Counted from the first letter of the stretch, positions 11,161 to 27,682 are shown. The stretch: DNA of 58,860 nucleotides from an uncultured Micavibrio sp. (GCA_964647515.1 CAZYHI010000001.1:1-58860); one strand, 5' to 3'. The notes: a model not told the origin generated them from the sequence alone. Translations and numbers: made by a program.

Positions 11161-11250
11161 GTCATTGCGAGTCCAAATTTATTTGGACGAAGCAATCTCT
11201 TTCAATATTATTAGATTGCCGCGTCAGCCTAAAGGCTTCCTCGCAATGAC
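11161..11250. repeat. miniature palindromic intergenic element (CGTCAT...ATGACG family)
   Basis: Perfect 11-bp terminal inverted repeat gtcattgcgag (11161-11171) / ctcgcaatgac (11240-11250). Internal hairpins are gtccaaa/tttggac and gcaatct/agattgc. The track ORF 11162-11380 is a translation artefact of this element. Confidence 0.7.
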
Positions 11251-11258
11251 AATTTCCT

Positions 11259-11831
11259 TTACTCATTAAAATAAATGGCCTGTGATGGCATATCTTTGGT
11301 AATTTCAATTTTCTTTTTCGGCGTGGGGGTAAAGCGCCCCTGCGGAGACAGCTTCTTATCCTCGCTCCGTTTATACACATAGATTCCTAGCACTGATAAG
11401 CCAACGCCCCAAATTGTACTCAGGCTCGCCATACCTTGTAAAATATGTCCCGCTTTTTCAGTTTCAAACACAATAATATAGGCCAGCCCGCACATCTGCG
11501 CCGCCCATGTCACCGCCATGATATAACCAAATGTCGGTCGCATACGGCGAACATATTTATCGGTGGAATTTATCTCGCTACGCAAAGATTCATTGACCTC
11601 ATGCAAGCGCGCCTCTACTTCCGCCACCCGCATCCGTGCTATGACTTCGGCATGACGATGTGCTTCGATGAGTTGTTCTTGCGAGATCAAACCACCCGCA
11701 AGCGCTTCATCGACTTTGTTCAACGCCTCGCTTGCGCTTTTTGCCACAGGATTATCAATGCGGGATAAAGCCTGCGCGACAAATTCAATAAGTAACGGTA
11801 AGCCAATTTTTGAAAGTATAGTTGTGAGCAT
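11259..11831 (-). CDS. holin-like membrane protein (phage/GTA 3-TM holin-like architecture)
   Basis: 190 aa. An N-terminal amphipathic/coiled-coil region is followed by RRMRPTFGYIMAVTWAAQMCGLAYIIVF and LSTIWGVGLSVLGIYVY hydrophobic segments. The layout recalls the GTA_holin_3TM family (from memory). It lies at the lysis end of the cluster. Confidence 0.45.
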   Translation of the reverse strand: MLTTILSKIGLPLLIEFVAQALSRIDNPVAKSASEALNKVDEALAGGLISQEQLIEAHRHAEVIARMRVAEVEARLHEVNESLRSEINSTDKYVRRMRPTFGYIMAVTWAAQMCGLAYIIVFETEKAGHILQGMASLSTIWGVGLSVLGIYVYKRSEDKKLSPQGRFTPTPKKKIEITKDMPSQAIYFNE

Positions 11832-11876
11832 GTTTTTATTTCCTTTCTACTTTTCGTCATTGCGTCAAATATTGAA

Positions 11877-11905
11877 TTGACATAATTTGTATTCGTTGTT
11901 ACTAT
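11877..11905 (+). promoter_or_regulatory. candidate sigma70-type promoter of the isochorismatase-family gene
   Basis: TTGACA (11877-11882), N17, TACTAT (11900-11905), followed by RBS GAGG and ATG 11923. Confidence 0.45.
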
Positions 11906-11922
11906 CCCACCCAGAGGTAAAC

Positions 11923-12498
11923 ATGGCGAAGCACGCAAAAACACTGACGGAATTTTTTGACGAAGAAGCGTTAGCTTCTCGCAAAATAGCTTTTACGACT
12001 ATTGATGTGCAAAACCACTTCACAAACCCAGCATTCGGTGTCCATGGCACTCCTCTTACAAATCAAGTTGCGCAGAGAATTATAAATTATACATCACTAT
12101 TTAGAGACGCTGGCTTTCCCATTATTCACGTTTATATGAATGATGAAAAAGGTCAGCCTCCTAAAGATTCATATGGCGGATTTCACGATAATTTTCCAAA
12201 GAAAACAGATAATTTTGCTGAAAAACAACACCCCTCAGCCCTTTATAAAAATAATAGTCAACTTGAATCCATCATAGATGATCTAGAAATCGTAGGCATA
12301 TTTGCCGTAGGGTTTTTCACTAGCACATGCGTTCAAATGACGGTTAACGCCGCCGTATTAAAAAAATCGTTAGGCGTTTGTGTTTTAAGCGATCTAGTAA
12401 GTGATGCAGATAAAAAAGGTGGCAAAGCTTTGTCAAGAATACAAAGACGTGGCATTTCGGTTATCCAAAGCAATCAATTAAATCTGCATTATAGTTAA
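11923..12498 (+). CDS. isochorismatase-family cysteine hydrolase (nicotinamidase-like)
   Basis: The ATG at 11923 with RBS gaggtaaac is preferred over the TTG at 11887. TIDVQNHF (catalytic Asp region) and GFFTSTCVQMT (nucleophile Cys) match the isochorismatase/PncA fold family. Confidence 0.8.
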   Translation: MAKHAKTLTEFFDEEALASRKIAFTTIDVQNHFTNPAFGVHGTPLTNQVAQRIINYTSLFRDAGFPIIHVYMNDEKGQPPKDSYGGFHDNFPKKTDNFAEKQHPSALYKNNSQLESIIDDLEIVGIFAVGFFTSTCVQMTVNAAVLKKSLGVCVLSDLVSDADKKGGKALSRIQRRGISVIQSNQLNLHYS

Positions 12499-12514
12499 GA
12501 ATTATTCTTCAAAA

Positions 12515-13084
12515 TCATACTTCAACCAACTTATAAAAAATATGCCGACTAATGGTCTTGAGCGGTTTCTCACCCTTCGACCAATAGGGTGACACATAAT
12601 CCGCATGGTAATGCGTTGCGCCGCCCGTATTATCTTTCAACGTGCCAATGACAGCACGGCGCGCAATGCGCAAACAAGTGGCAAAATGAACGTTTTTATC
12701 CGTAACGGTTGTCAGGCGTTTATAACTAGGGTCATTTTTATTCCAACATGAAAACTGATACGGTTTTTGACACACACCAATAATATTATTGCCCCACCAA
12801 TAACGCCCACCACGTTTTTGTGAAACTTTAACACGGTTCAACACAACATTGGCGACAGCCTCCAACCCCGCATGTGGTTCACCGCGCGCCTCCCCAAATA
12901 TTGTACGGGCAAGAACATCGACTTCCAATGAACGATAATATTCTTCCTGTTTTATTTTTTCAGAATTTATTGTTTTGAGTTTTTCTTTCTTGTTTTTTTG
13001 GGGCGTTAGCTTTGCTGATTTTCGATCATGCGGGCGCAACAACCCAATAATGTTTTTAAACATTGGATTTCCTTTCTTTTTCAT
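12515..13084 (-). CDS. cell wall hydrolase, SleB/Hydrolase_2 family (putative endolysin)
   Basis: ARTIFGEARGEPHAGLEAVANVVLNRV, YQFSCWN and ATHYHADYVSPYWS are characteristic of the SleB-type cell wall hydrolase domain. The protein has a basic N-terminal extension. Confidence 0.85.
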   Translation of the reverse strand: MKKKGNPMFKNIIGLLRPHDRKSAKLTPQKNKKEKLKTINSEKIKQEEYYRSLEVDVLARTIFGEARGEPHAGLEAVANVVLNRVKVSQKRGGRYWWGNNIIGVCQKPYQFSCWNKNDPSYKRLTTVTDKNVHFATCLRIARRAVIGTLKDNTGGATHYHADYVSPYWSKGEKPLKTISRHIFYKLVEV

Positions 13085-13145
13085 AGCCGCTCAGACACAT
13101 AAATGTGCTACGCGGGTTCTTTGTAATAATTGTCTTGTCGTGAGT

Positions 13146-13418
13146 TTACCGACGCAAAGCTTCTATCGCTTTGATTTCAATATTTGAAATGCGGTCGTGG
13201 AGTTTTTGAACAATATTTTCGATGCGGTTTGATTGTTTGTCATGCTGTTCACGATAATGTTTTAATGAATTTTTATGAACGGCAAACTCAATCAGCAATT
13301 CATTAAATTGTTCTGTTTTTTGTTCAACTTTTTTTAAACGATAATAAACCACACCTGCTTGTGCGATAATAACAATAACCGTTATCCAATCATTAATTGA
13401 AAATTGTGAAACTTCCAT
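13146..13418 (-). CDS. small type-II membrane coiled-coil protein (spanin- or holin-like, speculative)
   Basis: 90 aa with one N-terminal TM segment (WITVIVIIAQAGVVYY) followed by a helical charged region. It lies between TerL and the muramidase. Confidence 0.4.
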   Translation of the reverse strand: MEVSQFSINDWITVIVIIAQAGVVYYRLKKVEQKTEQFNELLIEFAVHKNSLKHYREQHDKQSNRIENIVQKLHDRISNIEIKAIEALRR

Positions 13419-13430
13419 ATCTTCTCCTTC

Positions 13431-14918
13431 TTAAACTTCAAAATCTGTATTTGCCTGATGGTGGCCTTGCGACGCGTTCCATTTTGATTGCGCAGTCGCG
13501 TATGTTTTTTTAATCCGCACAGGTTCCAACGACAACGCACCCGCCACCGCATCCAACCCATCATCATGGCCGTTCTTTTTATCTGGTTGCCATTCCATCA
13601 TCTCAATCAAAAATGGCGTTTTCTTTACCGATTCATGGACATGAAGCGCCCGCGCGGCCAATACTGCATCAAAACTTTCTAAAATCCGTAAGGCTTTATT
13701 TTTGGTACTGCTTTTTTCTACCACCGCACAGGCGATATTTTTTCCCCCTAGCTCTCGTCTTAAAATCGCGGGTAAGAATTTCCCTAAACCATTAATCTCA
13801 ACCGCAACCGAAGGCACATAAAAACGCTGTAACATCTCTGCCACTTGTTGACATTGAAGGGTCGCTTCATCCTCACCTTCACAACACTCAACCTTGATAT
13901 AAGAGATATGGTGCAGATAATGATTTCCACCCTCATCTGTAAAGACAATAGCCAGAACACTGCTATCACCGTTATTTCCTTTTTTGGCACTACCAAAAGC
14001 AGGATCCCACCACGCACTGCATGATACAATGCGGCTATCCATGACATCTAAATAAGATTGTTTTTGCACTTCGCTATAAACCAAATCATCGTCATAAAAA
14101 TTTAACAAATTATGATCCAGACGGCTGTCTTTTATATTGACAGGTTGCAACATCATTTGCGCCGCAAATTTATGCGGCCCTGCTTGCTTTTTCAAAAGAT
14201 CAATATCGGCCTTGGTAAATTGTTCTGGCCAAACGCTGTTACCTTCTTTATCCAACAAAGGTTGCTTATACCTGTCGAAGCCAGATAGATATGGCTCTTC
14301 TTCATTAATTTCTTTTCGCGCTACATCGCTGTAAATTGAAAAATAACTATGGGGTGTTCCGATATAAAATTGCAGACCACCAGGCACCAAAATAAAATTA
14401 CTTTCATCAAGACGCTCACGCAAGTTCTCACGCTTTTGTGCTGTATCGGAAGTGTTAGGCACTTCAACATCATCATATAAAATAACGTCCGCGCGACACC
14501 CCGTAATATTGGATGTCACCCCTGCGGCCAAGACCGATGGATCACGTAATTCTTTTTGTCTATTTAAGGTAAAGCGATCAGCCGCCCATTGGTCAGGCTT
14601 GATCGGTTTTAGATGAGCGGTTAAAGGATGCTTCTCTATTATCTTCCTGATATTGCGCACCATTTTCGAGGACAACTGATTGTCCGCGGCTAACACTAGG
14701 ATACGCAAATCCGGATCCCGCCAAAGCAGCCACGCCGAGAAGAGTCCGACCAGTGTCGACTTTCCGCATGCCCGAAAGGCCATCATCAAAAGCCGCCTGT
14801 TGCCATGCCGCCACGATGTCTCTAACCACATTGCTATCTTGTAGTGGATCAAAGGCGTTGTGTAATTTTGTTTCTTGTTCCATAAGCTTAAGAATAGCGC
14901 AAAACTGTATTTTTGCAA
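13431..14918 (-). CDS. phage terminase large subunit
   Basis: Walker A AFRACGKST, Walker B-like VILYDDVE, and nuclease-domain acidic motifs WWDPAFG and HDDGLDAVAGAL. The TTG start is preceded by AAGGA. Confidence 0.9.
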   Translation of the reverse strand: MQKYSFALFLSLWNKKQNYTTPLIHYKIAMWLETSWRHGNRRLLMMAFRACGKSTLVGLFSAWLLWRDPDLRILVLAADNQLSSKMVRNIRKIIEKHPLTAHLKPIKPDQWAADRFTLNRQKELRDPSVLAAGVTSNITGCRADVILYDDVEVPNTSDTAQKRENLRERLDESNFILVPGGLQFYIGTPHSYFSIYSDVARKEINEEEPYLSGFDRYKQPLLDKEGNSVWPEQFTKADIDLLKKQAGPHKFAAQMMLQPVNIKDSRLDHNLLNFYDDDLVYSEVQKQSYLDVMDSRIVSCSAWWDPAFGSAKKGNNGDSSVLAIVFTDEGGNHYLHHISYIKVECCEGEDEATLQCQQVAEMLQRFYVPSVAVEINGLGKFLPAILRRELGGKNIACAVVEKSSTKNKALRILESFDAVLAARALHVHESVKKTPFLIEMMEWQPDKKNGHDDGLDAVAGALSLEPVRIKKTYATAQSKWNASQGHHQANTDFEV

Positions 14919-15000
14919 AGCTAATTCCTTTCTATCTCTTTAAAATTTAAGTGGCGAATACCATAATAATCACTAAATAGTAATAAAATAATGAATAATG

Positions 15001-15336
15001 TCACTTGTGAGGAATTTTATTTAAGTCTTCACTGATGCGCTTTTCAGCGGATTTGACCTCTGATTTTATCTGTTCAATATAATCAGACGTGTTTTCTTTC
15101 TTTTCTACCAGCTTATAAAACTTCAAAAGAATTTCGATATTAGTCAGCGCAACTTTACATGCCTTGTGAAATTCAATGAAGTTTTTAATGTCTTCTACAC
15201 TCTCATTTAACGCCTCTTGAGAGTTTCCAAATTTTATAAAATTTTCGTAACTCGCCATAATGCAACGAAGCGCATCGGGTAAAAAATTTTCAATTTGTTG
15301 ATTGGTTTTTTCTTCATTTTTTATATCATCATTCAT
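15001..15336 (-). CDS. hypothetical phage protein (position compatible with a small terminase subunit, speculative)
   Basis: 111-aa acidic helical ORF immediately upstream of TerL in the operon. No motif recognised. Confidence 0.4.
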   Translation of the reverse strand: MNDDIKNEEKTNQQIENFLPDALRCIMASYENFIKFGNSQEALNESVEDIKNFIEFHKACKVALTNIEILLKFYKLVEKKENTSDYIEQIKSEVKSAEKRISEDLNKIPHK

Positions 15337-15367
15337 ATAGTCTTCCCTTTCCTTCAGCAGAACACTT

Positions 15368-17389
15368 CTAAAACTTACTCACAATATACCAACGGCCACC
15401 ATCGGATACGACAGTGATGGCGTTATATTGTGCATTCAAAGGTTGAGCAAAGTTATCTGGACCACTACCGCCAAGCTCACTCACCGTAATTCCATTAGAA
15501 GACACATCCGTCTTTTTAATCGTCACGGTACGCCCGACGGCTTCGGGGGCATTAGCAGGAGGAAGTCGCGCTTCTAACGCGCCACCGAAAGACGACAACA
15601 AATATGTATCAACAGCCATATCAATATCATAAAGACCATTGCCATCAAAAAAGCGCGTGTTCCCTGCTGAACGGTTGGAAGCAATCACAAACCATTCCGC
15701 CCCATTGGATAGCACCATCATATAATCATTTTCTGACCCTAAATAATAATTACGGCTATCGGGCCCATTACCATTTTCTTCGGTAACGGTAATCACGTTT
15801 TTAGAGCTATCGATCTTTTTGAGCACCATCATCACACCCACCGCATCAGATGCTTGTGGTAATAGCACAGTCAATGCGCCACCAAAGCTTGAGAGTAAAT
15901 GTACCGAATGCGATATATCCAACGTCAAAACACCACTGGCGTCATTATATTCGGTATCATAACGTTGCAAGGTCGCGTTCATATCCGTCACGGTTGTCCG
16001 TTGCAAACGGTTTTTATGCGGAAAACCTGCATTATAAGCGGTGTATTCCCCACCCGATAAATCAAAAATCGCCGAACCATCACTGACTGATAAAAGATTA
16101 ATAATCGAGGTTTCGATTGAACCATTTTCAAGTTTAATATTCGGCACTTGATTATAACTTTCTGCATAGGGATTAATCAGCAGCGTCTTATCCGAATTTG
16201 CACCGATGATAAAACAGCCTTGTGATGTGCCGTGGACGTTGGCTTCACAATCAACGAAGCTGTTATTAAAACGCCCTTGCTCCACAAAAAAACCTGCATT
16301 GGAAATTGGCGTCCCTAACGAATAAGCGCGACACGCATGAAATTTATTGGCGTTCGGCGTATCCCCTGCCCCTGTCCGTGTTAGGTGAAATCCATTAACG
16401 GCCATTTGTTCAACCAAGACACGGTCAAAATTGTTCCAATAACATGGCTTATTCGTATCATTATAACCGTCCAGTAAAACACCTGTGTTACTACCTACAA
16501 TGACAATATCGGTAATTGAGTTTTGTACACAAGGACGGTCACGACCAAAAAGTTTAATACCAATATCACCGCCTTCAATTCTGAAATCTGATAGCGTTGC
16601 GTAATCTTCAACAACCTCAATCACATTAAATGTTTTATCTTGCGCCAATAAAACGGATCGTTGCCCCGCACCCTTTAAAGTTTGACGCGCGGCAATGGTA
16701 ATAGGCGCATTTATGAGATACCGCCCTTCAGGAATATAAACACTGTCATAAGCGGCTAAAGCTTGTTGTATCGCCAAAGTATCATCGGTTAAACCATCGC
16801 CTTTCGCGCCGAAATCTTTAACCGAAATCACATCTTTAAATTTATCATCGCTGCTGCGTGTGACCGCCCCAATACCAAGCGCGGTATAATCAGGCAGGCC
16901 TGTTGCGTTTGATAAAGACACAGCAATGGGGTTTCCATCGCCATCAAAACCAAGACCTTTTCCCGCACGTTGATCACGCGGTGGTAATTCATTATGCCCT
17001 TCTGTTTCATGATCGCTATAGCGTAGCATCGGTGATAAATCACGATTGATTTGCTGTATCGATGCGGTTAAATAATCAAGTTCATTATTAATGGCTTGTG
17101 CGCTAAAATCTCCACCTTCTAGAAAGTCAGTCACACGCTCCAACGGCAATCGACGCTCTAACGTGACAACGGTGCCGCTTTGTGGTGGTTCATCAAAAGT
17201 AACATACCCCCCTGCCGTTTCACCAACATCGGTAATGTCAAAACCACTAAATTGTGGTGCGCCATCAAAATAAATTTTCAAATCTTCACTGGCAAAGATA
17301 GGAAAGATATAGGCAAAATCTGTTTGTGTTCCATTGGCGACATAACGCACAAGTGGCGCAATGTCGGGCATTTTTATATGCTCCGTCAT
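15368..17389 (-). CDS. phage tail fibre/tailspike with pectate-lyase-like beta-helix and duplicated C-terminal domain
   Basis: The N-terminus VRYVANGTQTDFAYIFPIF..DLKIYFDG is typical of podovirus tail fibres. VKDFGAKGDGLTDDTLAIQQAL is the Pectate_lyase_3-type motif. There are two C-terminal ~88-aa repeats, each starting ..LLSSFGGAL. Confidence 0.8.
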   Translation of the reverse strand: MTEHIKMPDIAPLVRYVANGTQTDFAYIFPIFASEDLKIYFDGAPQFSGFDITDVGETAGGYVTFDEPPQSGTVVTLERRLPLERVTDFLEGGDFSAQAINNELDYLTASIQQINRDLSPMLRYSDHETEGHNELPPRDQRAGKGLGFDGDGNPIAVSLSNATGLPDYTALGIGAVTRSSDDKFKDVISVKDFGAKGDGLTDDTLAIQQALAAYDSVYIPEGRYLINAPITIAARQTLKGAGQRSVLLAQDKTFNVIEVVEDYATLSDFRIEGGDIGIKLFGRDRPCVQNSITDIVIVGSNTGVLLDGYNDTNKPCYWNNFDRVLVEQMAVNGFHLTRTGAGDTPNANKFHACRAYSLGTPISNAGFFVEQGRFNNSFVDCEANVHGTSQGCFIIGANSDKTLLINPYAESYNQVPNIKLENGSIETSIINLLSVSDGSAIFDLSGGEYTAYNAGFPHKNRLQRTTVTDMNATLQRYDTEYNDASGVLTLDISHSVHLLSSFGGALTVLLPQASDAVGVMMVLKKIDSSKNVITVTEENGNGPDSRNYYLGSENDYMMVLSNGAEWFVIASNRSAGNTRFFDGNGLYDIDMAVDTYLLSSFGGALEARLPPANAPEAVGRTVTIKKTDVSSNGITVSELGGSGPDNFAQPLNAQYNAITVVSDGGRWYIVSKF

Positions 17390-17478: not shown

Positions 17479-17868
17479 ATGAAGAAAAATTTAAAAAAAA
17501 TCATACGCAATCAGTTTTACTGTATAGTATCAGTATTACTTCTTATGTTTTTTATCGTTGTTATTGACGATATTACTGAATCATTATCCACCCTTTATGG
17601 CTATGATGATTTTTTTACACATCTATGGAATGTAGGTTTTATTTTTCTAAATCTATCCATGGTTTTTATTTTATATAGTCGAGCAAAAATAATTGGAAAA
17701 AGTATAAAAAATATTTTTTCTATAACATCTATAGTGTTTTATTTTCTTTTGCTCTTAGAGGTGAAAATATTTCATTCCGAAAACATGATTACAATTTATA
17801 TTTTTTTGTTAACTTCTTTTTTATATTTAATAATTCTAACACCCTATATCTTATTAAAGAAAATTTAA
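17479..17868 (+). CDS. small integral membrane protein (opposite-strand cassette)
   Basis: 129 aa with about four hydrophobic segments, very AT-rich, antisense to the structural operon. Its stop abuts the stop of the convergent ORF at 17869. Confidence 0.5.
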   Translation: MKKNLKKIIRNQFYCIVSVLLLMFFIVVIDDITESLSTLYGYDDFFTHLWNVGFIFLNLSMVFILYSRAKIIGKSIKNIFSITSIVFYFLLLLEVKIFHSENMITIYIFLLTSFLYLIILTPYILLKKI

Positions 17869-18366
17869 TCAATCCCTTTTCTTTGGTGATTTTATTAAAA
17901 CATCTATCAATGCTTTTTGAAAATCCTTCAACACATTATCTAAATGATCTGATTTCTGTCTTGCTAACTCACTGCTGGATTCAGGGTCATCATTGGCCAA
18001 CATGTCTTCAAGACGCTTTTGATCTTCGGTCATTCTTTCCTTCGTGCGTTGTTCAGAATTCTTCATCACATCAATAAGCTTGTTTCCTTTTTTACGGGCT
18101 TTGTTCACTTTCTTCGCCGCATCGGCTTGTAAAACTTCTTTTCGCAATTCCTTTTCTGTCTCGCCACCAGGGTATAAAACACCATCAACTTTCAATCCCT
18201 TTTCACCTTGAAATTTTTGAATAGCTTGGTCTGTTTCACGTTCAATAATACCATTATCAATTGGCGCATCACGATATCCCGTATCATTAAGGGCATTTTT
18301 CACAATCAGTACATCGGCTTCATCATTTTGAACAAAATTACCTACAGAATTTTTTATATGTTTCAT
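17869..18366 (-). CDS. peptidoglycan-binding-domain protein (virion-associated, putative)
   Basis: TDQAIQKFQGEKGLKVDGVLYPGGETEKEL matches the PG_binding_1 repeat signature. The C-terminal half is charged and helical. Confidence 0.55.
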   Translation of the reverse strand: MKHIKNSVGNFVQNDEADVLIVKNALNDTGYRDAPIDNGIIERETDQAIQKFQGEKGLKVDGVLYPGGETEKELRKEVLQADAAKKVNKARKKGNKLIDVMKNSEQRTKERMTEDQKRLEDMLANDDPESSSELARQKSDHLDNVLKDFQKALIDVLIKSPKKRD

Positions 18367-18437: not shown

Positions 18438-18773
18438 ATGAAAATATTTTTGACATTATTGTTGTTTGTCGTGACTTATTTGTCTGCGCCTACATTCTCC
18501 ATTCAAAAGTCTTACGCGCAAAGTCAAGATCGATTAGATTCTGCGCGCAGCAGCATCGATCTTTATTACGAAGAACTTGCCGAAAAAAAAGCCAAACGTG
18601 ATTCTTATTCCTTTGAAATAGAAGAAGATGAAAAAGACGACATCAACTATAAGGCAGACCGTTCAACAACATTAAAGCAACCAAAGCAGCAGCGATTAAA
18701 TCGTCATGGCAAAGGACAGTTAAAATCATCTGCTGATGTTTTGAAAAATTTACTAAGCCCTGCCAAAAAATAA
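18438..18773 (+). CDS. small secreted protein (opposite-strand cassette)
   Basis: 111 aa. The signal peptide MKIFLTLLLFVVTYLSAPTFSIQKSYA is followed by a highly charged Lys/Glu/Asp-rich region. Confidence 0.5.
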   Translation: MKIFLTLLLFVVTYLSAPTFSIQKSYAQSQDRLDSARSSIDLYYEELAEKKAKRDSYSFEIEEDEKDDINYKADRSTTLKQPKQQRLNRHGKGQLKSSADVLKNLLSPAKK

Positions 18774-18777
18774 AATC

Positions 18778-19323: not shown

Positions 19324-21222
19324 TTAATCATTAATCTTTATTTCAATCGCCGTTGAAAGAAGCGTAAATTTATAGGGAACTTCCTGTTCAATACGCCAAT
19401 AAGGATGTGGTCCATTTTTGAGCCACCCTAATGATCGAACACGAATATCATCAGTCACCAACGGCGGTGGTGTGTCCAAAATTTCATCTTCACCAAATTG
19501 TTTTAATGTCACATCTTTTAACCCACGCCCCACATCAAGACGTAACGCTTGCGTTTCTTGCACACGGAAGATGGCTTCAATCAATCTTGTTTTCTTGCCA
19601 GCTGTTGCTTCACTCATTTCCAAAGGTAATGGCTCTAAAACATGTGTATAGGGCAAGCCGACTTCTATCTGTAGCGCAGGATCATCCAACGTCACTGCGC
19701 CATCAATAACCTGTAAAGGGTTATCCAAGACAATACCATCGGCGATGACAACGACGTCACGTCCTTCCAAATGATCTAAACCCGACCATGTTTGTCGTGG
19801 ATTATCGGTTTGTCCTGTCAGCGCAGAATCCAAATTAATCTCAACATCAAAACATTCAATATAAAAAGCGCCATCGCGCTCAACCAATAAATAAGTATTT
19901 CGTCCGACAACACTAACCGAATGAACATGCCCCAATGTTTCATGCAACGTCCATGCGCGCACTTGCTCTGCCCTATAAAGGGTCATTGTCGCTATCTTTC
20001 CATCATCACGCACCGCAAAAACAAGACGACGATGCTGATCATAATCTTGATCAATGACATTTTGTGGAATATGGCGTGAGACCAAAGCTAAATCAATCGC
20101 GGTATAGGCTTGCTCAATATCCGTATATAAAAATTCTCTAATTTCCTGTCCGTTATCGGCGACAAAAATTGTCGCACCATCGACCGTCACGGGAGGAACA
20201 TAACGTCCAATCACCGAACCCACACGCGTTTGACGGTTTAACTGTAAGGATGTTGGCGTCAAAGGCGTACCTGTGACAATCCATTCCGCACCACTGGTAA
20301 AAACTTGCAAATGGCGACCAGAAAACACACCGCGTATCGCATTAACTTGGTCAGATAAAATAGAAAATTCAATGGCTTCGTCATCCAACCCCTCACCCAA
20401 ATCAAAGTTAAACAAATCACCAGAGCGTGAAAACCAAAGACGATTTGGTAAATCACGCGAACCTCCAATAACCAAACGATCTTGATGAAAGGCCACCGTC
20501 ACGGGATATCCACGAACGGAGGAGTATGCCTGTTCAAACCAATCAATCGTTGTCGCTGTATCGGGTAAATCTTCAATCAATTCAACGGTGATAACTGTTG
20601 GTGAATCATAGCTTAAAATCTGTGCTTGTTTTCCCGCAATTTGCATCCGCGTTCCTGCATGACCAAGAGAAAACACATCATCAGAAGCCGTTAAAGTCAC
20701 CGTGCCGCTTATACCACTGGGTGTTAAGGTCACATTACTATCGGCAAACTTATAAAAAGGTTGGTAAATGATATTTTCATCACTGAAAAACATCCAATCT
20801 TCTAAAACAAATTGCCCAAGATCATTACGTATTAATTTTTGCGGCACATAATCAGGATGAACCAGCAACAATGTATCCGCACTTTGCGTCCATGCCACTT
20901 GGGATATATCATTTTGTGACCATGGTGATGTGATGCTTGTAATTTTCACATCATCAAAATAGACATCAATTTTATTGGCCGTTAAAACCAGTAAATATGT
21001 TTGCTGTGCGTTAAATTCAAACGGGATAAGACGGCCATTCCCTTCTACCGTATCTATATAGCGCAAGCCATCACGGCGCGTGACACCACCCGTAGGATAG
21101 ATAAAAAGATTTTGCATTTTCGCCGCGCCATTTTTGTAAGAAACCAATTCTCCACGTCCCAATAAATCTTCGGAAATCTCCCCTGCGGTAAAATTACTTT
21201 TAACTTGTCTTGCTCTTGTCAT
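19324..21222 (-). CDS. podovirus tail tubular protein B / nozzle-like protein
   Basis: 632 aa. The N-terminus NFTAGEISEDLLGRGELVSYKNGAAKMQNLFIYPTGGVTRRDG resembles gp12-like tail proteins of alphaproteobacterial podophages (from memory). Its position after the gp11-like gene fits. Confidence 0.55.
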   Translation of the reverse strand: MTRARQVKSNFTAGEISEDLLGRGELVSYKNGAAKMQNLFIYPTGGVTRRDGLRYIDTVEGNGRLIPFEFNAQQTYLLVLTANKIDVYFDDVKITSITSPWSQNDISQVAWTQSADTLLLVHPDYVPQKLIRNDLGQFVLEDWMFFSDENIIYQPFYKFADSNVTLTPSGISGTVTLTASDDVFSLGHAGTRMQIAGKQAQILSYDSPTVITVELIEDLPDTATTIDWFEQAYSSVRGYPVTVAFHQDRLVIGGSRDLPNRLWFSRSGDLFNFDLGEGLDDEAIEFSILSDQVNAIRGVFSGRHLQVFTSGAEWIVTGTPLTPTSLQLNRQTRVGSVIGRYVPPVTVDGATIFVADNGQEIREFLYTDIEQAYTAIDLALVSRHIPQNVIDQDYDQHRRLVFAVRDDGKIATMTLYRAEQVRAWTLHETLGHVHSVSVVGRNTYLLVERDGAFYIECFDVEINLDSALTGQTDNPRQTWSGLDHLEGRDVVVIADGIVLDNPLQVIDGAVTLDDPALQIEVGLPYTHVLEPLPLEMSEATAGKKTRLIEAIFRVQETQALRLDVGRGLKDVTLKQFGEDEILDTPPPLVTDDIRVRSLGWLKNGPHPYWRIEQEVPYKFTLLSTAIEIKIND

Positions 21223-21246
21223 TATATCTATCCTTTTAATTTCTTC

Positions 21247-21813
21247 TTACCGCACATCAATCAACGTAAAATCTTCAATACGGTTCGGGCTGTCTTGTTG
21301 CGCATCAATTTGACGCGCCATCGCAAATTCATCTTTCGCCAACTTATATAAAGCGGTTGAACGTGATGTACTTTCAGTCACGGGAATACAAAATTCTGCC
21401 GCCAACTTCGTAATCAGCGCCATATCGAAAAATGGCGGAAAGCTCTCTTCTTCTGGACGATAAATATAAGTCAGCACAACTGCATCGGCATTAGTATAAA
21501 GTTGCCCATTCACAAGACGGTAATTCAGTCCACGACCGCGCTGACCATCGCCAGCAGAAATAGCACGAAGAAAATCAAGCGGTAATTGAAATGCGTTTTG
21601 ATAATCCGCCAATGGCGCATCATTTAATTTTGTCAATGCCAACTGCCCTGTCGCAAATGTCCATGGATATGATGACAACATCGCATCACGAACAGGCGCG
21701 AACAAAGCATTCGCAATTTCTGATTCTGCGGTATCATCATTAAAAGATGTAATAGGTGCTGCGCCCAACCTAACCAGTGCGCGCGAGCATAGTCCAATGT
21801 CATTTAAAGCCAT
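21247..21813 (-). CDS. podovirus tail tubular protein A / adaptor-like protein
   Basis: The ATG at 21813 with RBS AAGGAGA is preferred over the longer track ORF. MALNDIGLCSRALVRLGAAPITSFNDDTAESEIA..SSYPWTFA resembles gp11-like adaptor proteins (from memory). Confidence 0.5.
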   Translation of the reverse strand: MALNDIGLCSRALVRLGAAPITSFNDDTAESEIANALFAPVRDAMLSSYPWTFATGQLALTKLNDAPLADYQNAFQLPLDFLRAISAGDGQRGRGLNYRLVNGQLYTNADAVVLTYIYRPEEESFPPFFDMALITKLAAEFCIPVTESTSRSTALYKLAKDEFAMARQIDAQQDSPNRIEDFTLIDVR

Positions 21814-21910
21814 TGTGTGTCTCCTTATGTATTGAATAAAAATCAAAAAGACAGCCAAAAAATAAATCAATATCTATGGCTGCCTTTCCTTGTTACGGAG
21901 GTTAGAAAAC

Positions 21911-22150
21911 CTATGCGAGGGCCGCAACACTGACGACGCCAGACGTCACATCAGTCACAATATAAAATTGTGCGCTTGCGCCTGCGTCGATATCAACATT
22001 GGCGATGATAAGATCATTTTCATCCATCATCTCCGATGCTGTATTAAAATATCCAGGCGTTGTAACAGAATCATCTTCTGTTTTAAAATGCCATAGAGTG
22101 AAGTTGTTGGCGTATGCGAGTACGCTTAAATTAGAGAGTTGTAAACTCAT
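21911..22150 (-). CDS. small phage structural-module protein, function unknown
   Basis: 79-aa ORF with RBS GGAGA, located between the capsid and adaptor genes. Confidence 0.5.
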   Translation of the reverse strand: MSLQLSNLSVLAYANNFTLWHFKTEDDSVTTPGYFNTASEMMDENDLIIANVDIDAGASAQFYIVTDVTSGVVSVAALA

Positions 22151-22187
22151 GGTTATCTCCTTTTTTGAGTTATTAAATAAAACAAAC

Positions 22188-22269
22188 CGTCATCTCGAAC
22201 GCACCAATTTTTGGGGCGGAGAGATCTCAAATTACTTCATGAGATTCTTCGCATTCGCTCGGAATGACG
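22188..22269. repeat. miniature palindromic intergenic element (CGTCAT...ATGACG family) just downstream of the capsid gene
   Basis: Imperfect terminal inverted repeat cgtcatctcga (22188-22198) / tcggaatgacg (22259-22269), with an internal hairpin atctca/tgagat. Confidence 0.6.
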
Positions 22270-22287
22270 ACTTATTTTTAGATGTTA

Positions 22288-23124
22288 TTAATCAGGTGTT
22301 TCATCACAATTAATTGTCACAACACCCGCCTCATCAATCAGAACAGACCCTTGGCTCATCATGTTATTGACAAAATGAGCGGCGCGATCACCATGCCAGC
22401 TAATATCTGTTTGAACATCACTACCGACGGCATGGCCGATGGCTGTTTTGTGATAGAAATAACAAGAACGAATATCGTCACCATCAATCGGCAATCCAGA
22501 ATGTGGAATCCAGATTGTACCCAACCACATTTTAGCTTGAGACGTACCATTAGCGTATGGAAGTGCGCCGTCACCGATATAATCAGCATTTACAAATTCA
22601 TCAATTTGTAACAAATCACTCCATTGTTTCCAACCAACAGCGGCAAAACGCTGACCATCATCTGGCACATCGGTTTCACCAAACAATTCAAAAGCTTCAA
22701 GAACTTTATCTTTTGTTAAGCCTGTATTGGCATCACCAATGATATTGGCAGATGATGTTGTTAGCGCATTAATGATCATCTCATCTGTTTTACGGCCAAG
22801 CGCAGACGCACCCGCACTGGCAATAACCTGACGTTCATCAATATTCAATTTTAACTCATCCAGATGATCAACCCAGTCACCCGCGTAGAAATCTTGTAAA
22901 ACACATTCTACATTTGAGTGAACCAGATTCATCACAGGCACCATGCCATGTGTTGATTTGGTCGAGGCGGTTCCTTTACCGACCTTTTGAAAGACGGTTG
23001 AAGACCCAGTTACTTTATTTGTTGTACGTACAGAGTTTCTTAATTTAGATCCCTGACGTTGGTAAGCTTCATGCACTTCACGTTCGAACTGCTTGATAAA
23101 AGCTTGGTCAATAGATTCTGACAT
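22288..23124 (-). CDS. phage major capsid protein
   Basis: 278 aa. The N-terminus FIKQFEREVHEAYQRQGSKLRNSVR..VFQKVGKGTA is typical of a major capsid family in alphaproteobacterial podophages (from memory). Its position after the scaffold gene fits. Confidence 0.75.
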   Translation of the reverse strand: MSESIDQAFIKQFEREVHEAYQRQGSKLRNSVRTTNKVTGSSTVFQKVGKGTASTKSTHGMVPVMNLVHSNVECVLQDFYAGDWVDHLDELKLNIDERQVIASAGASALGRKTDEMIINALTTSSANIIGDANTGLTKDKVLEAFELFGETDVPDDGQRFAAVGWKQWSDLLQIDEFVNADYIGDGALPYANGTSQAKMWLGTIWIPHSGLPIDGDDIRSCYFYHKTAIGHAVGSDVQTDISWHGDRAAHFVNNMMSQGSVLIDEAGVVTINCDETPD

Positions 23125-23466
23125 TGCAATTTTCCTTTTTGTTTAAAATTATGTTGAAAATAAAACGCGAGCATAAGTTTTCGCATTCGCACTTTCGTGC
23201 AAATACGGCTCATCAAACGTAAATAGGGAAATGTTTCAGGCAAATATGAATAAAAATTTGTTTTCTGAAACTATTTGAGATGCCTTAACGAATAGAGTGT
23301 TAAGAACAAAACAACGCCATAAACCAAGATGGTAATATGGCGTTGATAGAACTAATATATGAATTTATTCCTATAAAATCAACTCTTTTTTTGGATAAAT
23401 TCTTAAAATACATTGAAAAACATTACTTATGTCTATAGATTGTGAATCAAGGGAGAGTTAAAAACT

Positions 23467-23850
23467 ATGTTTACATCAATATTAGAAACACTAAAAAACA
23501 CAGCCAGTAACGATGATCAAGATGCGCGCCGCGAATATGAACGCCGCGAAACTGATAGCTGTGTTGGTATTATTGACGGTATTTCCTACCCTATACTCGA
23601 TTGGAGTAAAGGTGGCGTCGCCCTTTCAGGTGATGATAAACAATTCAGTCTCAATACCACAAAAACAATCACGCTAAGATTTAAATTAGAAAATCGGATT
23701 GTTGATGTCTTACATAGTGGTCGCATTTTAAGAAAAGGACGCGATAAATTTGTTTTACAATTCGCGCCCCTCACTCAAAACATTGATCGTCAGTTCAACC
23801 ATATTGTTGATGATTATGTCTCTCAACAATTCGCAAACTCACAATTATAA
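23467..23850 (+). CDS. PilZ domain (c-di-GMP-binding) protein
   Basis: 127 aa. RREYER (RxxxR) is followed 19 residues later by DWSKGG (DxSxxG). RBS GGGAGAG lies 9 nt upstream of the ATG, and a TTGAAA-N17-TAGATT promoter-like sequence lies at 23413-23441. Confidence 0.7.
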   Translation: MFTSILETLKNTASNDDQDARREYERRETDSCVGIIDGISYPILDWSKGGVALSGDDKQFSLNTTKTITLRFKLENRIVDVLHSGRILRKGRDKFVLQFAPLTQNIDRQFNHIVDDYVSQQFANSQL

Positions 23851-23863
23851 TACAATCATCGAT

Positions 23864-24496
23864 TTATTTGCCGTACATTTTTTGAAAACCTTCAGTGACT
23901 TTGGCAACAAAAGACGGATCTTTATCACGCCAATATTTTGGATCACGCATCATAGATTGTAAATCCATGCCATCTGACGCATTAGTGTTTTTAAAATCAC
24001 CAATCTTTGGTTCTTCACCGCGCATCATATTATAAAGTGCCAATACCCCTTCGTACGAACTGGTTAAAGAATCTAACGCATCGACAGGTAAGTTCTTTTG
24101 ACCAAAAGATAGAAGCTGTCTTGAAATTTCTTTCCATTTTTCTGCACCACCGAAATACTCAACCAGCTTTTCAACCTCACGGTCAGCCTTAAAATCACCA
24201 GCCATTTCAACGACCATCGGCACCATTTTTTCAACGGCCAAATCATAAACAAACTGCACCTGTTCATTGGTAAAACCTTTTTCGTGCATACGTCTGTTCA
24301 TGTCTTCATCTTCGTCAAACAAACCATGTGAACAATCAACACAATAATCTGAATGTGTTTTAGGCGCCCTTGGGGCATTCGACATTTTTTGCTCCAACGC
24401 TTTGTAAGATTGCGCCATCGCTCCTATATTTACTTCACCTGTTTCTTTATTTTTAAATTTTTCTGGTATTTCATTATCTAATAAAGTGTCATTCAT
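23864..24496 (-). CDS. phage scaffolding protein
   Basis: 210-aa acidic helical protein. IPEKFKNKETGEVNIGAMAQSYKALEQKMS is a typical scaffold N-terminus, and its position between the portal and capsid genes fits. Confidence 0.6.
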   Translation of the reverse strand: MNDTLLDNEIPEKFKNKETGEVNIGAMAQSYKALEQKMSNAPRAPKTHSDYCVDCSHGLFDEDEDMNRRMHEKGFTNEQVQFVYDLAVEKMVPMVVEMAGDFKADREVEKLVEYFGGAEKWKEISRQLLSFGQKNLPVDALDSLTSSYEGVLALYNMMRGEEPKIGDFKNTNASDGMDLQSMMRDPKYWRDKDPSFVAKVTEGFQKMYGK

Positions 24497-24542
24497 ATTT
24501 TTATCTCCTTAAGTTATGAATATTTTAAATTAAATTTTTCTT

Positions 24543-24803
24543 TTAATTATTTTTGCCCTGCTCAACAAAATTAAGAATTGTTGAAACCAATGATCGCTGT
24601 CCGTCCATATGGCGTAACTGATCATTTGATGCCCCTGCTCCTAAATTTCGATGAAAGGTTATATATTGCAGATATACCAAAGCTTTCTTTCCATCATCGC
24701 TAGAAAAAACACGCGTAAACACACGCTTTATATTTTTTTGATCGATTTTGGATAAATGTGAGACATCGATTGCTTCCATTTTTGATTTATTCTTCCAAAA
24801 CAT
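24543..24803 (-). CDS. small phage protein, Bbp19-like
   Basis: The start at 24803 (ATG preceded by GGAGG at 6 nt) is preferred over the track start at 24854. FSSDDGKKALVYL...MDGQRSLVSTIL resembles the Bbp19-type protein that follows the portal in BPP-1-like phages (from memory). Confidence 0.5.
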   Translation of the reverse strand: MFWKNKSKMEAIDVSHLSKIDQKNIKRVFTRVFSSDDGKKALVYLQYITFHRNLGAGASNDQLRHMDGQRSLVSTILNFVEQGKNN

Positions 24804-26358
24804 TTTCGACCTCCAAATTATTCTCCAGATCATCCCCCAAATCATCCAAGACATCTAAGGGTGTTGGTAATATTTCTTTTTTCAACAAATCACGCGGAAC
24901 GCCCAATGTTTCGGCCAGTAATTTTACGGCCTTCGACGTGTCAACCATGGAAGTACCCGCGCCGCCCATAGAGGACGCAATATTAATCCATGTTAAAATG
25001 TCATTCACATGACCGCGCCCTTGCATCCGCGCCAAGGGGGAGCGATATTCAAGCATGATATAGCGACCATCTAAGGCAAGATCGGGAATCTCACCGCGTC
25101 GTTTTAAAATTGCAAAGGCACGCTCAACAAGAGGCGTGAGCAATTCAGATTGCAATCGTCCATATGTTGCTCCTAACAATAATGACATCTCCGAAGAACG
25201 TTCCAACACTTCTGTTGCTGTCATTTTCTTACTTACAACAGGGCCTAATTTATCCGCCAATAAAGCATGACGAATACGCGCCCTTAAATCACTTAAAATC
25301 AGCTCTGACACATCAAAACGTCCAGGCATATCCAAGGCTTTCAAGCCTTGCGACCCGACCGCCTTTGGAATAATAGCTCCAGGGACAAGCTCAATATTAG
25401 CAGGATTTAACACCCCATCATCATCGGCTTGCCAAATACCTGTCACCGCGATAGAAGCATTTTTCAAAATCAATTCGACAACTTTGTTCGCCGTTTTAAT
25501 GTCAGGTAATGCCTTCATCACAGGCGATCGTCCATAAATCTCTCCCGGGGATTTCATCCAACGAAATGAAATAGATGGTGATTTATGAAACTGTCCTTGC
25601 TTTAATAACGTCGGATAACCATCTTCGGTTAACATGGCAGTATATTGATAAATTCCATTTTCAGGGAGAATAGCTTCAAGAACACCAAAACGGTTTTGCG
25701 TATCGGCATCACCTTGACGCATAATATGCGATGGCAATTCTGCTTGCGGATAACGTTTTTTCAATTGTGATAATGTTAAAGATATGCTTCGATATGATCC
25801 ATCTAAAAATCCATTATCGCCTTCCTCCAACACAACATCCTGCAACGGCACAGATGAAAATTTAAAGGCTGAATATTCACCAATTTCCGTTTCTTCAAAA
25901 AACAAAGTCGATGTCCCGCCGACAACCAAATCAAGAAAAGCTTGGTGAATTTCAACACTAAAATTTGAACGATCAAAATGTGATTGTATTTTACGCGAAA
26001 TATCTTCCAAAACAGGCTCTAATTCCTGCGCTTCGCTCTCACTTAAATCTGGCCCTGCCTTTAAGCCAAACCACTGCGTCCATGGCGGTGTTAAATGCCC
26101 CAACAAACTCGCAGCCAATTGATCCACCGCATCCATCGCTGTGCCATCATATAAATGCTGTGTACGGCTGGCCCCCGCTCCACCAAATTGTGCGCTGTCA
26201 CTACGTTGAGGAAGCGCATAATCATAACAATCATCCCAATGCGTTTCCCAATTTTGACGACGCGCTTTAGCTTGGCTATACCCCTCCATAATTTTTTGAA
26301 GCTTTTGCGTTTGTTCTAAATCTTCTTGTGTTTTTTCTTTTATCTGAAAATCATCCAT
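24787..26358 (-). CDS. phage portal (head-to-tail connector, podovirus type)
   Basis: 523 aa with an N-terminal RRQNWETHWDDCYDYALPQR motif, typical of gp8-like connector proteins. RBS AGGAGA. Confidence 0.85.
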   Translation of the reverse strand: MDDFQIKEKTQEDLEQTQKLQKIMEGYSQAKARRQNWETHWDDCYDYALPQRSDSAQFGGAGASRTQHLYDGTAMDAVDQLAASLLGHLTPPWTQWFGLKAGPDLSESEAQELEPVLEDISRKIQSHFDRSNFSVEIHQAFLDLVVGGTSTLFFEETEIGEYSAFKFSSVPLQDVVLEEGDNGFLDGSYRSISLTLSQLKKRYPQAELPSHIMRQGDADTQNRFGVLEAILPENGIYQYTAMLTEDGYPTLLKQGQFHKSPSISFRWMKSPGEIYGRSPVMKALPDIKTANKVVELILKNASIAVTGIWQADDDGVLNPANIELVPGAIIPKAVGSQGLKALDMPGRFDVSELILSDLRARIRHALLADKLGPVVSKKMTATEVLERSSEMSLLLGATYGRLQSELLTPLVERAFAILKRRGEIPDLALDGRYIMLEYRSPLARMQGRGHVNDILTWINIASSMGGAGTSMVDTSKAVKLLAETLGVPRDLLKKEILPTPLDVLDDLGDDLENNLEVENVLEE

Positions 26359-26360
26359 GA

Positions 26361-26618
26361 TTATTCTCCTAACAAAGTTTTAGGTTGCGTGGTAGTGTCA
26401 TTATCATTGACCAACAACCCACGAAAACTTGTCGCGATCGTTCCTAATCGTCCACGTGAACGACGTAAAAGACTGTTCTGTCTGCCTTCAGCCCTCACCT
26501 CCTCATCTGTTTGTGTATTGGTCGGTTCTGTCGTTGTCACTGTTGGTGTTGTGACAACAGGCGCCGCAGGAACGGTGATGACCGTTGGTGCTTTTGGTTT
26601 ACTGGTTATGCTACCCAT
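26361..26618 (-). CDS. small phage protein with Thr/Val/Pro-rich tract and basic C-terminal motif
   Basis: 85 aa: MGSITSKPKAPTVITVPAAPVVTTPTVTTTEP, then LLRRSRGRLGTIATSFRGLL. It overlaps the upstream ORF by 8 nt and ends 2 nt before the portal start. Confidence 0.5.
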   Translation of the reverse strand: MGSITSKPKAPTVITVPAAPVVTTPTVTTTEPTNTQTDEEVRAEGRQNSLLRRSRGRLGTIATSFRGLLVNDNDTTTQPKTLLGE

Positions 26619-27030
26619 GGAATTTCCTTTCGATTTTATGTTTTTTGTAATTAATTTTTTTATGTTTTTTTAAATATTTAAATAGCTGCCACGGCGTGAT
26701 GATGTAACGAGCATGAACGCCTAAAATACGTTTTATAAATTCAACACAGCTATAGAGCATCACGGGCGCGGGTTTTTTATGATTTTTATCAATGACCGCC
26801 TGTACCACTTGATATCCTTGATTTTCCAACCATTGTGGTAAATTAAAAACGGCGTCAATGTGATGATGCATTTCTATATCTGTATAAGCAGATAACGGAT
26901 CAAGGCTTAGCCAATTTTTGCCATCATTAAGCAAAATAAAACAATGACGAAACCCTGGTTTTAATATTTTCAACCATGCAATATCAGTATGCCCTGTAAA
27001 GACAACCCATACCTGCTGTTCGTTTGTCAT
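26611..27030 (-). CDS. hypothetical phage protein
   Basis: 139 aa. The start overlaps the upstream stop (TAATG). A conserved-looking His (FRHCF) and Cys (YSCVEFIKRILG) could indicate a permuted NlpC/P60-like fold, but that is speculative. Confidence 0.45.
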   Translation of the reverse strand: MTNEQQVWVVFTGHTDIAWLKILKPGFRHCFILLNDGKNWLSLDPLSAYTDIEMHHHIDAVFNLPQWLENQGYQVVQAVIDKNHKKPAPVMLYSCVEFIKRILGVHARYIITPWQLFKYLKKHKKINYKKHKIERKFHG

Positions 27031-27494
27031 TAAAGATCAGTATCATTCGAATGAATAACCGCTTCTTCCAACCATGATTCATTTGCCTTTAAATCAAAAG
27101 TTTTTTTTGGCACAACAATATTTTTTCGAATTAAAATAGGTTCTAAACGGTTTAACGCCTCGCCCCATAATTTATCAGCACGCATTTCTTTAACGCGGCG
27201 TGGGTCTGGTGCCATCTGCCGACGGCCATAATGGCGTAACACCAAAATATGATCCCACAGCAACATGCGGTTGCGATATAAACCATTCAAGATTTTCAAA
27301 ATATCATTGGGTTCGCACGGCCTAGATAAAGATGACATCCCCGCAACATATCTCGCACCATCGACTTTGGCTTGCTGTGCCAAAACAAACCAGAACCATG
27401 CCTCTTCCACCGTATCAAAAGGTATCGTGTTTGGGTCTGTAGATTCCTGATTGCCACCCGTCCCCACCTTGTCGTCGCTACTCTTTTTTTTCAT
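27030..27494 (-). CDS. hypothetical protein, first gene of the phage-like operon (possible DNA-binding/regulatory or small terminase role)
   Basis: 154 aa with EEAWFWFVLAQQAKVDGARY, RPCEPNDILKILNGLYRNR and VLRHYG motifs that I recall from alphaproteobacterial phage/element proteins of unknown function. Confidence 0.45.
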   Translation of the reverse strand: MKKKSSDDKVGTGGNQESTDPNTIPFDTVEEAWFWFVLAQQAKVDGARYVAGMSSLSRPCEPNDILKILNGLYRNRMLLWDHILVLRHYGRRQMAPDPRRVKEMRADKLWGEALNRLEPILIRKNIVVPKKTFDLKANESWLEEAVIHSNDTDL

Positions 27495-27517
27495 CGCATT
27501 TCCCTTTAGATACAGTT

Positions 27518-27532
27518 GTTCCGTTTATGTTC
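27518..27532 (-). promoter_or_regulatory. alphaproteobacterial-type LexA (SOS) box GAAC-N7-GAAC
   Basis: The plus strand reads gttccgtttatgttc, which is GAACATAAACGGAAC on the minus strand. It lies 2 nt downstream of a TATGTA -10 (27535-27540) with a TTGACA -35 (27559-27564), and 24 nt upstream of ATG 27494. Confidence 0.5.
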
Positions 27533-27682
27533 ACTACATAATAGGATTATATTCATTTTGTCAAGTAAATAATATGCTTTTTTTCCTATTTATTTAATTT
27601 GCACTTTTGGGAGTTTAATCCTACACTTGTCTGAGATTCAAAAATCACTGTAAAAACAACGCGCTAACAAGAAAGTTTTTCT

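Follow-up and report, generated by a model that had tools for sequence, protein, structure and literature searches.

The chromosomal stretch considered here, 58,860 nucleotides from an uncultured Micavibrio sp. (GCA_964647515.1 CAZYHI010000001.1:1-58860, hereafter the window), carries between positions 11259 and 27494 a cluster of 18 minus-strand genes of the T7/HTVC010P/BPP-1-like podovirus type, as established by open reading frame (ORF) calls and profile searches, forming an element of about 17 kb. This cluster is inherited vertically and kept intact by purifying selection, and is thus domesticated. It has retained a complete set of head, short-tail, packaging and lysis genes as well as a CI-like repressor of its own and, compared with its true phage relatives, lacks replication, integration and large internal-virion genes. 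The element probably descends from a T7/HTVC010P-like podovirus that was domesticated, became fixed in the Micavibrio-like chromosome and now acts as a producer of particles resembling gene transfer agents (GTAs), the production of particles and the packaging of host DNA being predicted from its gene content. The original prediction had left the choice between a deletion remnant and a domesticated producer of short-tailed particles, and the in silico tests all go against the remnant.

All the products that had been named from the sequence were recognized by profile searches (Pfam, PHROG and NF033889). On the minus strand, these include the portal, or head-tail connector (24787-26358; PF12236, 3e-137), a Bbp19-like protein (24543-24803; PF25181, 1e-8), a T7-type scaffold for capsid assembly (23864-24496; PF05396, 3e-11), the major capsid protein (22288-23124; PF19821, 7e-83), the adaptor or tail tubular protein A (21247-21870; phrog_394, 4e-45), the nozzle or tail tubular protein B (19324-21222; phrog_376, 1e-144), a tail fiber or spike with a beta-helix pectate-lyase-like domain (15368-17389; PF12708, 1e-16, and tail PHROGs; found in 63 loci), a T7-type large terminase (TerL, 13431-14918; NF033889, 5e-125, covering model positions 1-500 of 500), a SleB-type cell-wall hydrolase, or endolysin (12515-13084; PF07486, 3e-21; 55 loci), and a GTA_holin_3TM-family holin, whose gene closes the cluster (11259-11831; PF11351, 6e-8, 33.6 bits for a cut-off of 24.8; 48 loci). 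The ORF series and its junctions were reproduced from the ORF list and translations: upstream of the portal, the small genes g154 (27030-27494, minus strand) and g139 (26611-27030, minus strand) have one base in common at 27030 (TAATG junction), g139 and g85 (26361-26618, minus strand) overlap by 8 nt (26611-26618), a 2-nt gap (26359-26360) precedes the portal, and the portal and Bbp19 genes overlap by 17 nt provided that Bbp19 starts at Met18 (24803), a start favored because its orthologs measure 80-92 aa. The adaptor probably starts at Met20, the median length of its orthologs being 189 aa. Four plus-strand ORFs lie within the cluster in addition, one of them a conserved PilZ gene.

The families detected by Pfam and PHROG are of the T7/BPP-1 type, with neither tape measure nor tube genes, as originally claimed, and prohead protease is also absent. 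Equally in line with the first reading of the sequence, a scan of the 58.9-kb window found no integrase, recombinase, polymerase, primase or other replication gene and no tRNA, and the repeat search returned neither a direct repeat common to both borders nor any att-like direct repeat above chance. The rest of the window is ordinary chromosome backbone, with acnA, folD and icd to the left of the cluster, and pyrE, nadK, purC, bolA, grx, rodA, pbp2, mreDCB, ligA, recN, bamD and lpxC to the right. The integrase, att sites and replication module of temperate prophages are likewise missing from six other loci (L001, L002, L004 and L169-L171).

Conservation of the cluster in related genomes, proposed originally as a test, was clearly observed. 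A scan with the nozzle profile, using one genome per GTDB species, recovered 518 contigs with a relative, and the best 80 of these 518 are labelled Micavibrio, Alphaproteobacteria, Rhodospirillales, Pseudomonadota, Pseudobdellovibrionaceae or Bdellovibrionales, the last two labels arising because NCBI files Micavibrio under Pseudobdellovibrionaceae. Among the 4583 portal homologs, the top matches (65-93% identity) come from uncultured Alphaproteobacteria or Micavibrio-like metagenome-assembled genomes (MAGs), many of them on megabase contigs. The same cluster is found in the same order, between icd and regulator-pyrE-nadK-purC, in at least 48 species-level Micavibrio-like genomes, down to about 57% portal identity and with capsid identities of 67-91% among Micavibrio-like loci; the four loci inspected singly all read mreBCD-pbp2-rodA-grx-bolA-purC-nadK-pyrE-regulator, followed by the cluster. 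The gene order is invariant (g154-g139-g85-portal-Bbp19-scaffold-[antisense gene]-capsid-g79-adaptor-nozzle-g173-fiber-(g111)-TerL-(g90)-hydrolase-holin), and 48 loci extend over both ends, of which 28 possess the full complement of 14 intact core genes; the rest mostly lack, as judged by BLAST, one gene that is small or divergent. An alternative fiber is found in L057 and L067. Two contigs of one MAG (OFTM66; L025 and L026) each carry a copy of the cluster, at least the former flanked by icd and pyrE; with a nozzle p-distance of about 0.11, they probably stem from two related populations binned together rather than from a duplication.

Pairwise ratios of nonsynonymous to synonymous substitutions (dN/dS, NG86 method) fall at about 0.00-0.25 across the cluster genes (0.01-0.28 for g154, 0.00-0.12 for the capsid), compared with 0.02-0.13 for the flanking icd, pyrE and nadK and for the regulator. 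Four of the genome pairs have unsaturated dS (0.1-0.9). Selection is purifying at the level of the housekeeping flanks, unsaturated pairs included, and far from the value near 1 that had been named as the signature of decay. Within each pair, the dS of the cluster equals that of the flanks (for L024/L026, 0.56-1.02 in the cluster and 0.80 for pyrE), mean protein p-distances are 0.24 for the capsid, 0.25 for icd and 0.42 for nadK, and cluster distances correlate with flank distances (rank correlations of 0.3-0.76) just as well as the flank genes do with one another. The codon usage of the cluster is host-like, both for GC at the three codon positions and for relative synonymous codon usage (r 0.97 vs 0.95 in a host half-vs-half control). 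The Walker A, Walker B and nuclease motifs of TerL are at least 95% conserved among 63 orthologs, and since conservation of these ATPase and nuclease sites, and of the portal, equals that of the structural genes, DNA packaging itself appears to be selected.

Comparative data of this kind show selection and not its target, which leaves some room for a phage-derived particle or lysis module kept for a purpose other than gene transfer, such as an SOS-induced anti-competitor particle comparable to PBSX, altruistic lysis setting free DNA or cell contents, or protection from related phages. Its repressor and predicted SOS-type control recall defective prophages such as PBSX, its fiber bears a depolymerase-like beta-helix, and its holin and hydrolase are conserved. 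The conservation of the packaging genes speaks in the opposite direction, no killing mechanism is known for a short non-contractile tail, and a subclade devoid of the fiber gene keeps its remaining cluster genes under selection (dN/dS 0.01-0.15 between L019 and L039), so that this alternative seems unlikely, while being the most serious one, and a GTA-like producer of particles is preferred.

Near-identity to a complete phage, as expected from a recent remnant, was not the case. The closest cultured phage, Pelagibacter phage EXVC031P Hodr, shares 51% identity in the capsid, 34% in the portal and about 30% in the nozzle; the relationship to HTVC010P-type pelagiphages, Vibrio phages and BPP-1 is more remote (27.5% for the nozzle of BPP-1), and the capsid of the IMG/VR phage contig L158 is 44% identical. 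The order portal-Bbp19-scaffold-capsid-g79-adaptor-nozzle is homologous in Hodr, HTVC010P-type phages and BPP-1, and L158 shares the head-tail order too; g79 (21911-22150, minus strand; phrog_18004; 68 loci), a small conserved virion-associated protein, is also present in Hodr at the equivalent position, and a homolog of g139 lies in L158 between the TerL position and the portal. In contrast with the element, L158 encodes a primase and an ATPase together with internal virion proteins of 556-1169 aa, and Hodr has ORFs of 783 and 1247 aa after the nozzle. An ORF of about 500 aa upstream of the Hodr portal was taken as TerL, although the TerL of the window did not match it, and L158 has at this place a TerL-sized ORF of 565 aa without confirming match. 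HTVC010P-type phages, Hodr and BPP-1 are autonomous, measure 34-42 kb and have no PilZ gene. In a neighbor-joining tree, 140 capsids of the element group in a single clade, to the exclusion of six phage capsids (element-phage identity at most 0.53), with the Micavibrio-type capsids as a subclade.

The element is not restricted to Micavibrio-like genomes. At least 579 related stretches are present in IMG/VR, many of them 12-19 kb "proviruses" called in isolate genomes, and these versions have the same gene set and regulator, without PilZ. Carriers identified by exact capsid look-up include many species of Azospirillum and of Thalassospira, Caenispirillum, Magnetospira, and, in the Roseomonas group, Roseomonas, Roseicella, Paracraurococcus, Dankookia and Belnapia; a role specific to predation was set aside, as non-predatory genera carry the same cluster. 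In Thalassospira (L169/L170), a complete cluster occupies another chromosomal site, without integrase. Three or four tandem tail-collar genes (PF07484) are inserted there between g79 and the adaptor (11165-13792), and the genes after the nozzle differ, so that the receptor-binding module appears to have been swapped between lineages.

Could the element then be mobile? A family of helper-dependent defective phages or satellites, replicated and moved by another phage or by host functions and landing repeatedly in alphaproteobacterial chromosomes would account for the differing sites in Thalassospira, Azospirillum and Micavibrio-like genomes, for the many provirus calls in IMG/VR, and for the possession of a repressor. 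None of the loci examined yielded an integrase, transposase, replication initiator or att repeat. Across Micavibrio-like species, the site stays the same even where dS rises to saturation, cluster and flank divergence agree within genome pairs, and the Micavibrio-type capsids are monophyletic. Known satellites such as phage-inducible chromosomal islands (PICIs) and capsid-forming PICIs (cf-PICIs) either lack tails and lysis genes or have int/rep modules, whereas the element has no int or rep gene and encodes its own capsid, tail and lysis proteins. Repeated landing is therefore quite improbable, and a chromosomally fixed GTA-like producer remains the better account.

The regulator (27683-28330, plus strand; PF00717, 1e-21, and phrog_4 repressor) is divergent from the cluster and comprises an N-terminal helix-turn-helix (HTH) DNA-binding domain of about 75 aa followed by an S24 autopeptidase domain of the LexA/CI type. 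It had first been counted among the flanking genes, and this has to be corrected: the regulator adjoins the cluster not only in Micavibrionales but also in Thalassospira and many IMG/VR loci, and since it remains its divergent neighbor even where the flanks differ, it is part of the element. It was also considered as the host LexA, and rejected on its score against TIGR00498 (28.7 bits for a cut-off of 111). Across Micavibrio-like loci, its DNA-binding domain shows 63-77% identity, and the S24 Ser/Lys dyad is kept in the window. The GTA analogy, in which host regulators run the cluster, is consequently only partly apt, as a CI-like S24 repressor is retained within the element itself. In a large Micavibrio-like subclade (L022-L029, L036, L038, L042, L048, L057, L063, L071 and L084), the S24 domain has been lost and the HTH domain of about 75 aa is fused in frame to PyrE (orotate phosphoribosyltransferase), giving a protein of about 305 aa, whereas in the window lineage (27683-29007) the HTH and S24 domains are followed by pyrE with a 34-nt overlap.

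The divergent control region between regulator and operon holds a candidate operator, a GAAC-N7-GAAC direct-repeat box (GAACATAAACGGAAC, 27518-27532, minus strand), which occurs once in the 58.9-kb window. The exact box, with the consensus GAACATAAAGGGAAC, lies upstream of the g154 ortholog in 41 of 57 loci, and in 46 of the 57 when one mismatch is allowed. In form, GAAC-N7-GAAC corresponds to the SOS box of Alphaproteobacteria. The non-Micavibrio versions (Thalassospira and IMG/VR) lack it, so that a LexA site common to all versions is not supported; it may therefore serve the adjacent regulator as operator, or be a LexA site particular to this lineage.

Another putative level of control lies between scaffold and capsid, where the original prediction had seen a gap of 740 bp. 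This interval in fact holds a gene antisense to the operon (23467-23850, plus strand), found always at this position in 69 loci, that encodes a PilZ-domain protein, a predicted receptor of cyclic di-GMP (c-di-GMP). The match to PF07238 is modest in the window (23.4 bits for a gathering cut-off of 22.5) and is found in 49 of 50 orthologs (best E 6e-9); the c-di-GMP-binding motifs RxxxR and N-x-S-x-x-G are essentially invariant, and dN/dS is 0.03-0.20. Neither the PilZ protein nor the regulator gave matches to PDB sequences. The PilZ gene is a host-type gene gained inside the operon. In Azospirillum-type clusters (L167/L168 of A. brasilense, L090, L093, L098 and L099), the same slot carries a HAMP-PAS-GGDEF-EAL protein, and a chemoreceptor is also found there in L090. 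A c-di-GMP gene thus seems, from gene positions, to have been placed in one slot twice independently, PilZ in Micavibrio-like genomes and GGDEF-EAL in Azospirillum, and this recurrence provides a concrete regulatory hypothesis. In the RcGTA system, c-di-GMP levels correlate with GTA activity (PMC9143464).

Taken together, these features suggest the following mechanism. The repressor, LexA, or both would bind the GAAC-N7-GAAC box and keep the operon silent, until DNA damage, acting through S24 self-cleavage, and the c-di-GMP state sensed by PilZ would allow expression in some cells. Procapsids would assemble on the portal and be filled by the T7-type terminase with available DNA, which would be chromosomal because the locus can neither excise nor replicate. 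The adaptor, nozzle and fiber would finish the short tail, holin and SleB hydrolase would lyse the cell, and the particles released would behave like a gene transfer agent. Delivery of the DNA may depend on uptake functions of the recipient, since the large ejection proteins are absent.

Several points weigh against this scenario. T7-type terminases normally cut specific concatemer junctions and do not package random headfuls; no recognizable small terminase was found in the cluster, for which g111 and g154 are guesses; and if the head has the geometry of its phage relatives of about 34 kb, it could hold the whole 17-kb locus, unlike the heads of classical GTAs. With respect to control, the PilZ gene and the SOS-box-like candidate operator are conserved, yet the adjacent repressor is of phage type, and such a repressor of its own implies a prophage-like, not a host-run, regulation. 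The S24 cleavage site (residues ~93-97) reads FAQ-A-S in the window and FAQ-A-G in close relatives, and the regulator of this genome may cleave poorly. A single ancient origin is not proven, because the non-Micavibrio versions occupy other chromosomal sites. Finally, not all copies are intact: the L005 copy, at the same site, is deleted from capsid to TerL, the TerL gene of L063 has a frameshift, a subclade (L019, L030 and L039) has no fiber gene between g173 and TerL, and in two A. brasilense strains (L167/L168) the portal end is missing or incomplete owing to insertion sequence (IS) transposases. An inert prophage not yet decayed, which the deletion in L005, the frameshift in L063 and the IS-cut A. 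brasilense copies might evoke, can nevertheless practically be dismissed, because dN/dS stays at 0.00-0.25 although dS reaches at least 1, divergence matches that of the flanks, core genes are 14/14 intact in 28/48 complete loci, TerL catalytic motifs are invariant and codon usage is fully host-like, and neutral ORFs would not outlast such divergence. The domesticated, GTA-like producer of particles therefore remains the preferred explanation.

The smaller genes of the cluster are less easily assigned. The product of g154, the first gene of the operon, is a conserved four-helix protein without Pfam match; its 403 homologs all come from this type of element, its profile gave only E > 0.2 against PDB, and its AlphaFold2 model (predicted local distance difference test, pLDDT, 77) had no fold match in PDB or BFVD. 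It is a candidate regulator or small terminase. The conserved protein g139 has invariant His29, Cys30, Asp44 and Cys95, which raised the idea of a permuted papain-like peptidase, unsupported by profile and fold searches in PDB, as neither its profile nor its AlphaFold2 model (pLDDT 90.8) found a match there. The small conserved gene g85 was found in 52 loci. Next to the nozzle, g173 (18778-19299, minus strand; 66 loci) encodes a Gln/Arg-rich coiled-coil protein without family match in profile searches, and is the only conserved candidate for an internal virion protein. A PG_binding_1 peptidoglycan-binding-domain protein (17869-18366, minus strand; PF01471, 2e-9) is patchy and limited to few loci. 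The helical protein g111 (15001-15336, minus strand; phrog_31793), directly upstream of TerL, is weakly conserved (28-41% identity, 34 loci) and is a candidate small terminase by position alone, and the transmembrane and coiled-coil protein g90 (13146-13418, minus strand), detected in six other loci, is possibly a lysis accessory protein.

Three of the plus-strand ORFs are specific to the window, with no counterpart at these positions in any of the loci compared, and look like recent cargo insertions: an isochorismatase-family gene (11887-12498; PF00857, 1e-12), a membrane-protein ORF of 22% GC (17479-17868) and a small secreted-type ORF (18438-18773). Two palindromic elements of about 90 nt are also present, one at the cluster border (11160-11251), with terminal inverted repeats CGTCATTGCGAG and a folding z-score of -6.1, and one between capsid and g79 (22188-22269), whose termini resemble CGTCATTGCGAG (z = -4.3), together with partial termini at 10210 and 11855. 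They look like miniature inverted-repeat transposable elements (MITEs) or repetitive extragenic palindromic (REP) sequences, without Rfam family. Their existence and strong folding stand as first noted, but the label "host-type" given to them does not follow, because the window contains no further full copy. Rfam matched no RNA family in the window, promoter and terminator scans were at background level, and an exact-sequence look-up of the window portal gave no match.

Outside the cluster, an ORF of 329 aa without Pfam match lies between folD and icd (7670-8659, plus strand), where L005 has other genes. About 10 kb from the cluster, four signaling and export features are found between 38216 and 50087: a cNMP-binding EAL phosphodiesterase (38216-39478), a 1062-aa FecR/FG-GAP protein (39585-42773), a CHASE2 adenylate/guanylate cyclase (42778-45018), and a type I secretion set (45027-50087) consisting of HlyD, a C39-peptidase ABC exporter and a TolC-like protein. 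The EAL phosphodiesterase could have a bearing on the c-di-GMP pool sensed by PilZ.

The element is a strong candidate for a new kind of gene transfer agent and apparently an undescribed one, no published description having been found in a full-text literature search. Few independent domestications of phages into GTAs are recognized, and those characterized are long-tailed, so that a podovirus-derived case found in many genera would add both an independent origin and a different particle architecture. If true, GTA-like exchange would extend to deep-branching alphaproteobacterial groups, in which only small clusters of RcGTA homologs have been reported (PMC5721377); in Azospirillum, GTA-like particles with 10 kb of DNA have been ascribed to RcGTA-like genes (PMC3899980). 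A broader claim can be made more tentatively, and is somewhat less likely than not: that of a working, independently evolved podovirus-derived GTA, under SOS-type repressor and c-di-GMP control, common to Micavibrio-like predators and Rhodospirillales-grade genera (Azospirillum, Thalassospira, the Roseomonas group, Caenispirillum and Magnetospira), and forming a second large alphaproteobacterial GTA lineage beside RcGTA. Thalassospira and Azospirillum are cultured and tractable carriers, in which direct tests could address particle production, how specifically a T7-type terminase packages when no genome replicates, and control by c-di-GMP and SOS.

Compared with known systems, the element has those attributes of a GTA that can be read from genomes, being a chromosomal cluster of structural, packaging and lysis genes without replication, excision or integration functions, inherited vertically under purifying selection and distinct from its viral relatives. 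RcGTA (Rhodogtaviriformidae) is alike in being a head, tail, packaging and lysis cluster of about 15-17 kb devoid of genes for replication and integration, in its vertical inheritance and purifying selection over a wide alphaproteobacterial range, in its GTA_holin_3TM holin, and in a link with c-di-GMP and SOS that is predicted here from genes. Their ancestry is nevertheless unrelated, the holin family being the only one in common, as the element has a PF12236 portal, a PF19821 capsid and a TerL of the T7 type, and lacks tape measure, tube and prohead protease. RcGTA is moreover controlled by CtrA/GafA, on which the element, with an S24 repressor of its own, does not depend. The PBSX element of Bacillus is also a non-replicating chromosomal phage cluster, silenced by a repressor, SOS-inducible (as predicted for the element) and located at one locus in related species, and it packages random host DNA as 13.4-kb fragments (PMC12946183), a behavior like that proposed for the element; it differs by its contractile tail, its occurrence in Firmicutes and its known killing activity, and has no protein homology to the element. 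That characterized GTAs are long-tailed, as originally stated, agrees with the literature, with the exception of FpGTA from Faecalibacterium, a candidate podovirus-like GTA presented as the first such GTA-like element (Nat Commun 2026; PMC12946183). FpGTA and the present element are both GTA-like candidates thought to make short-tailed particles; FpGTA differs in that it belongs to another phylum, has a two-locus architecture, and its packaged fragments of 8.4-8.9 kb have been seen, whereas the Micavibrio element is a single-locus candidate recognized from its genes.

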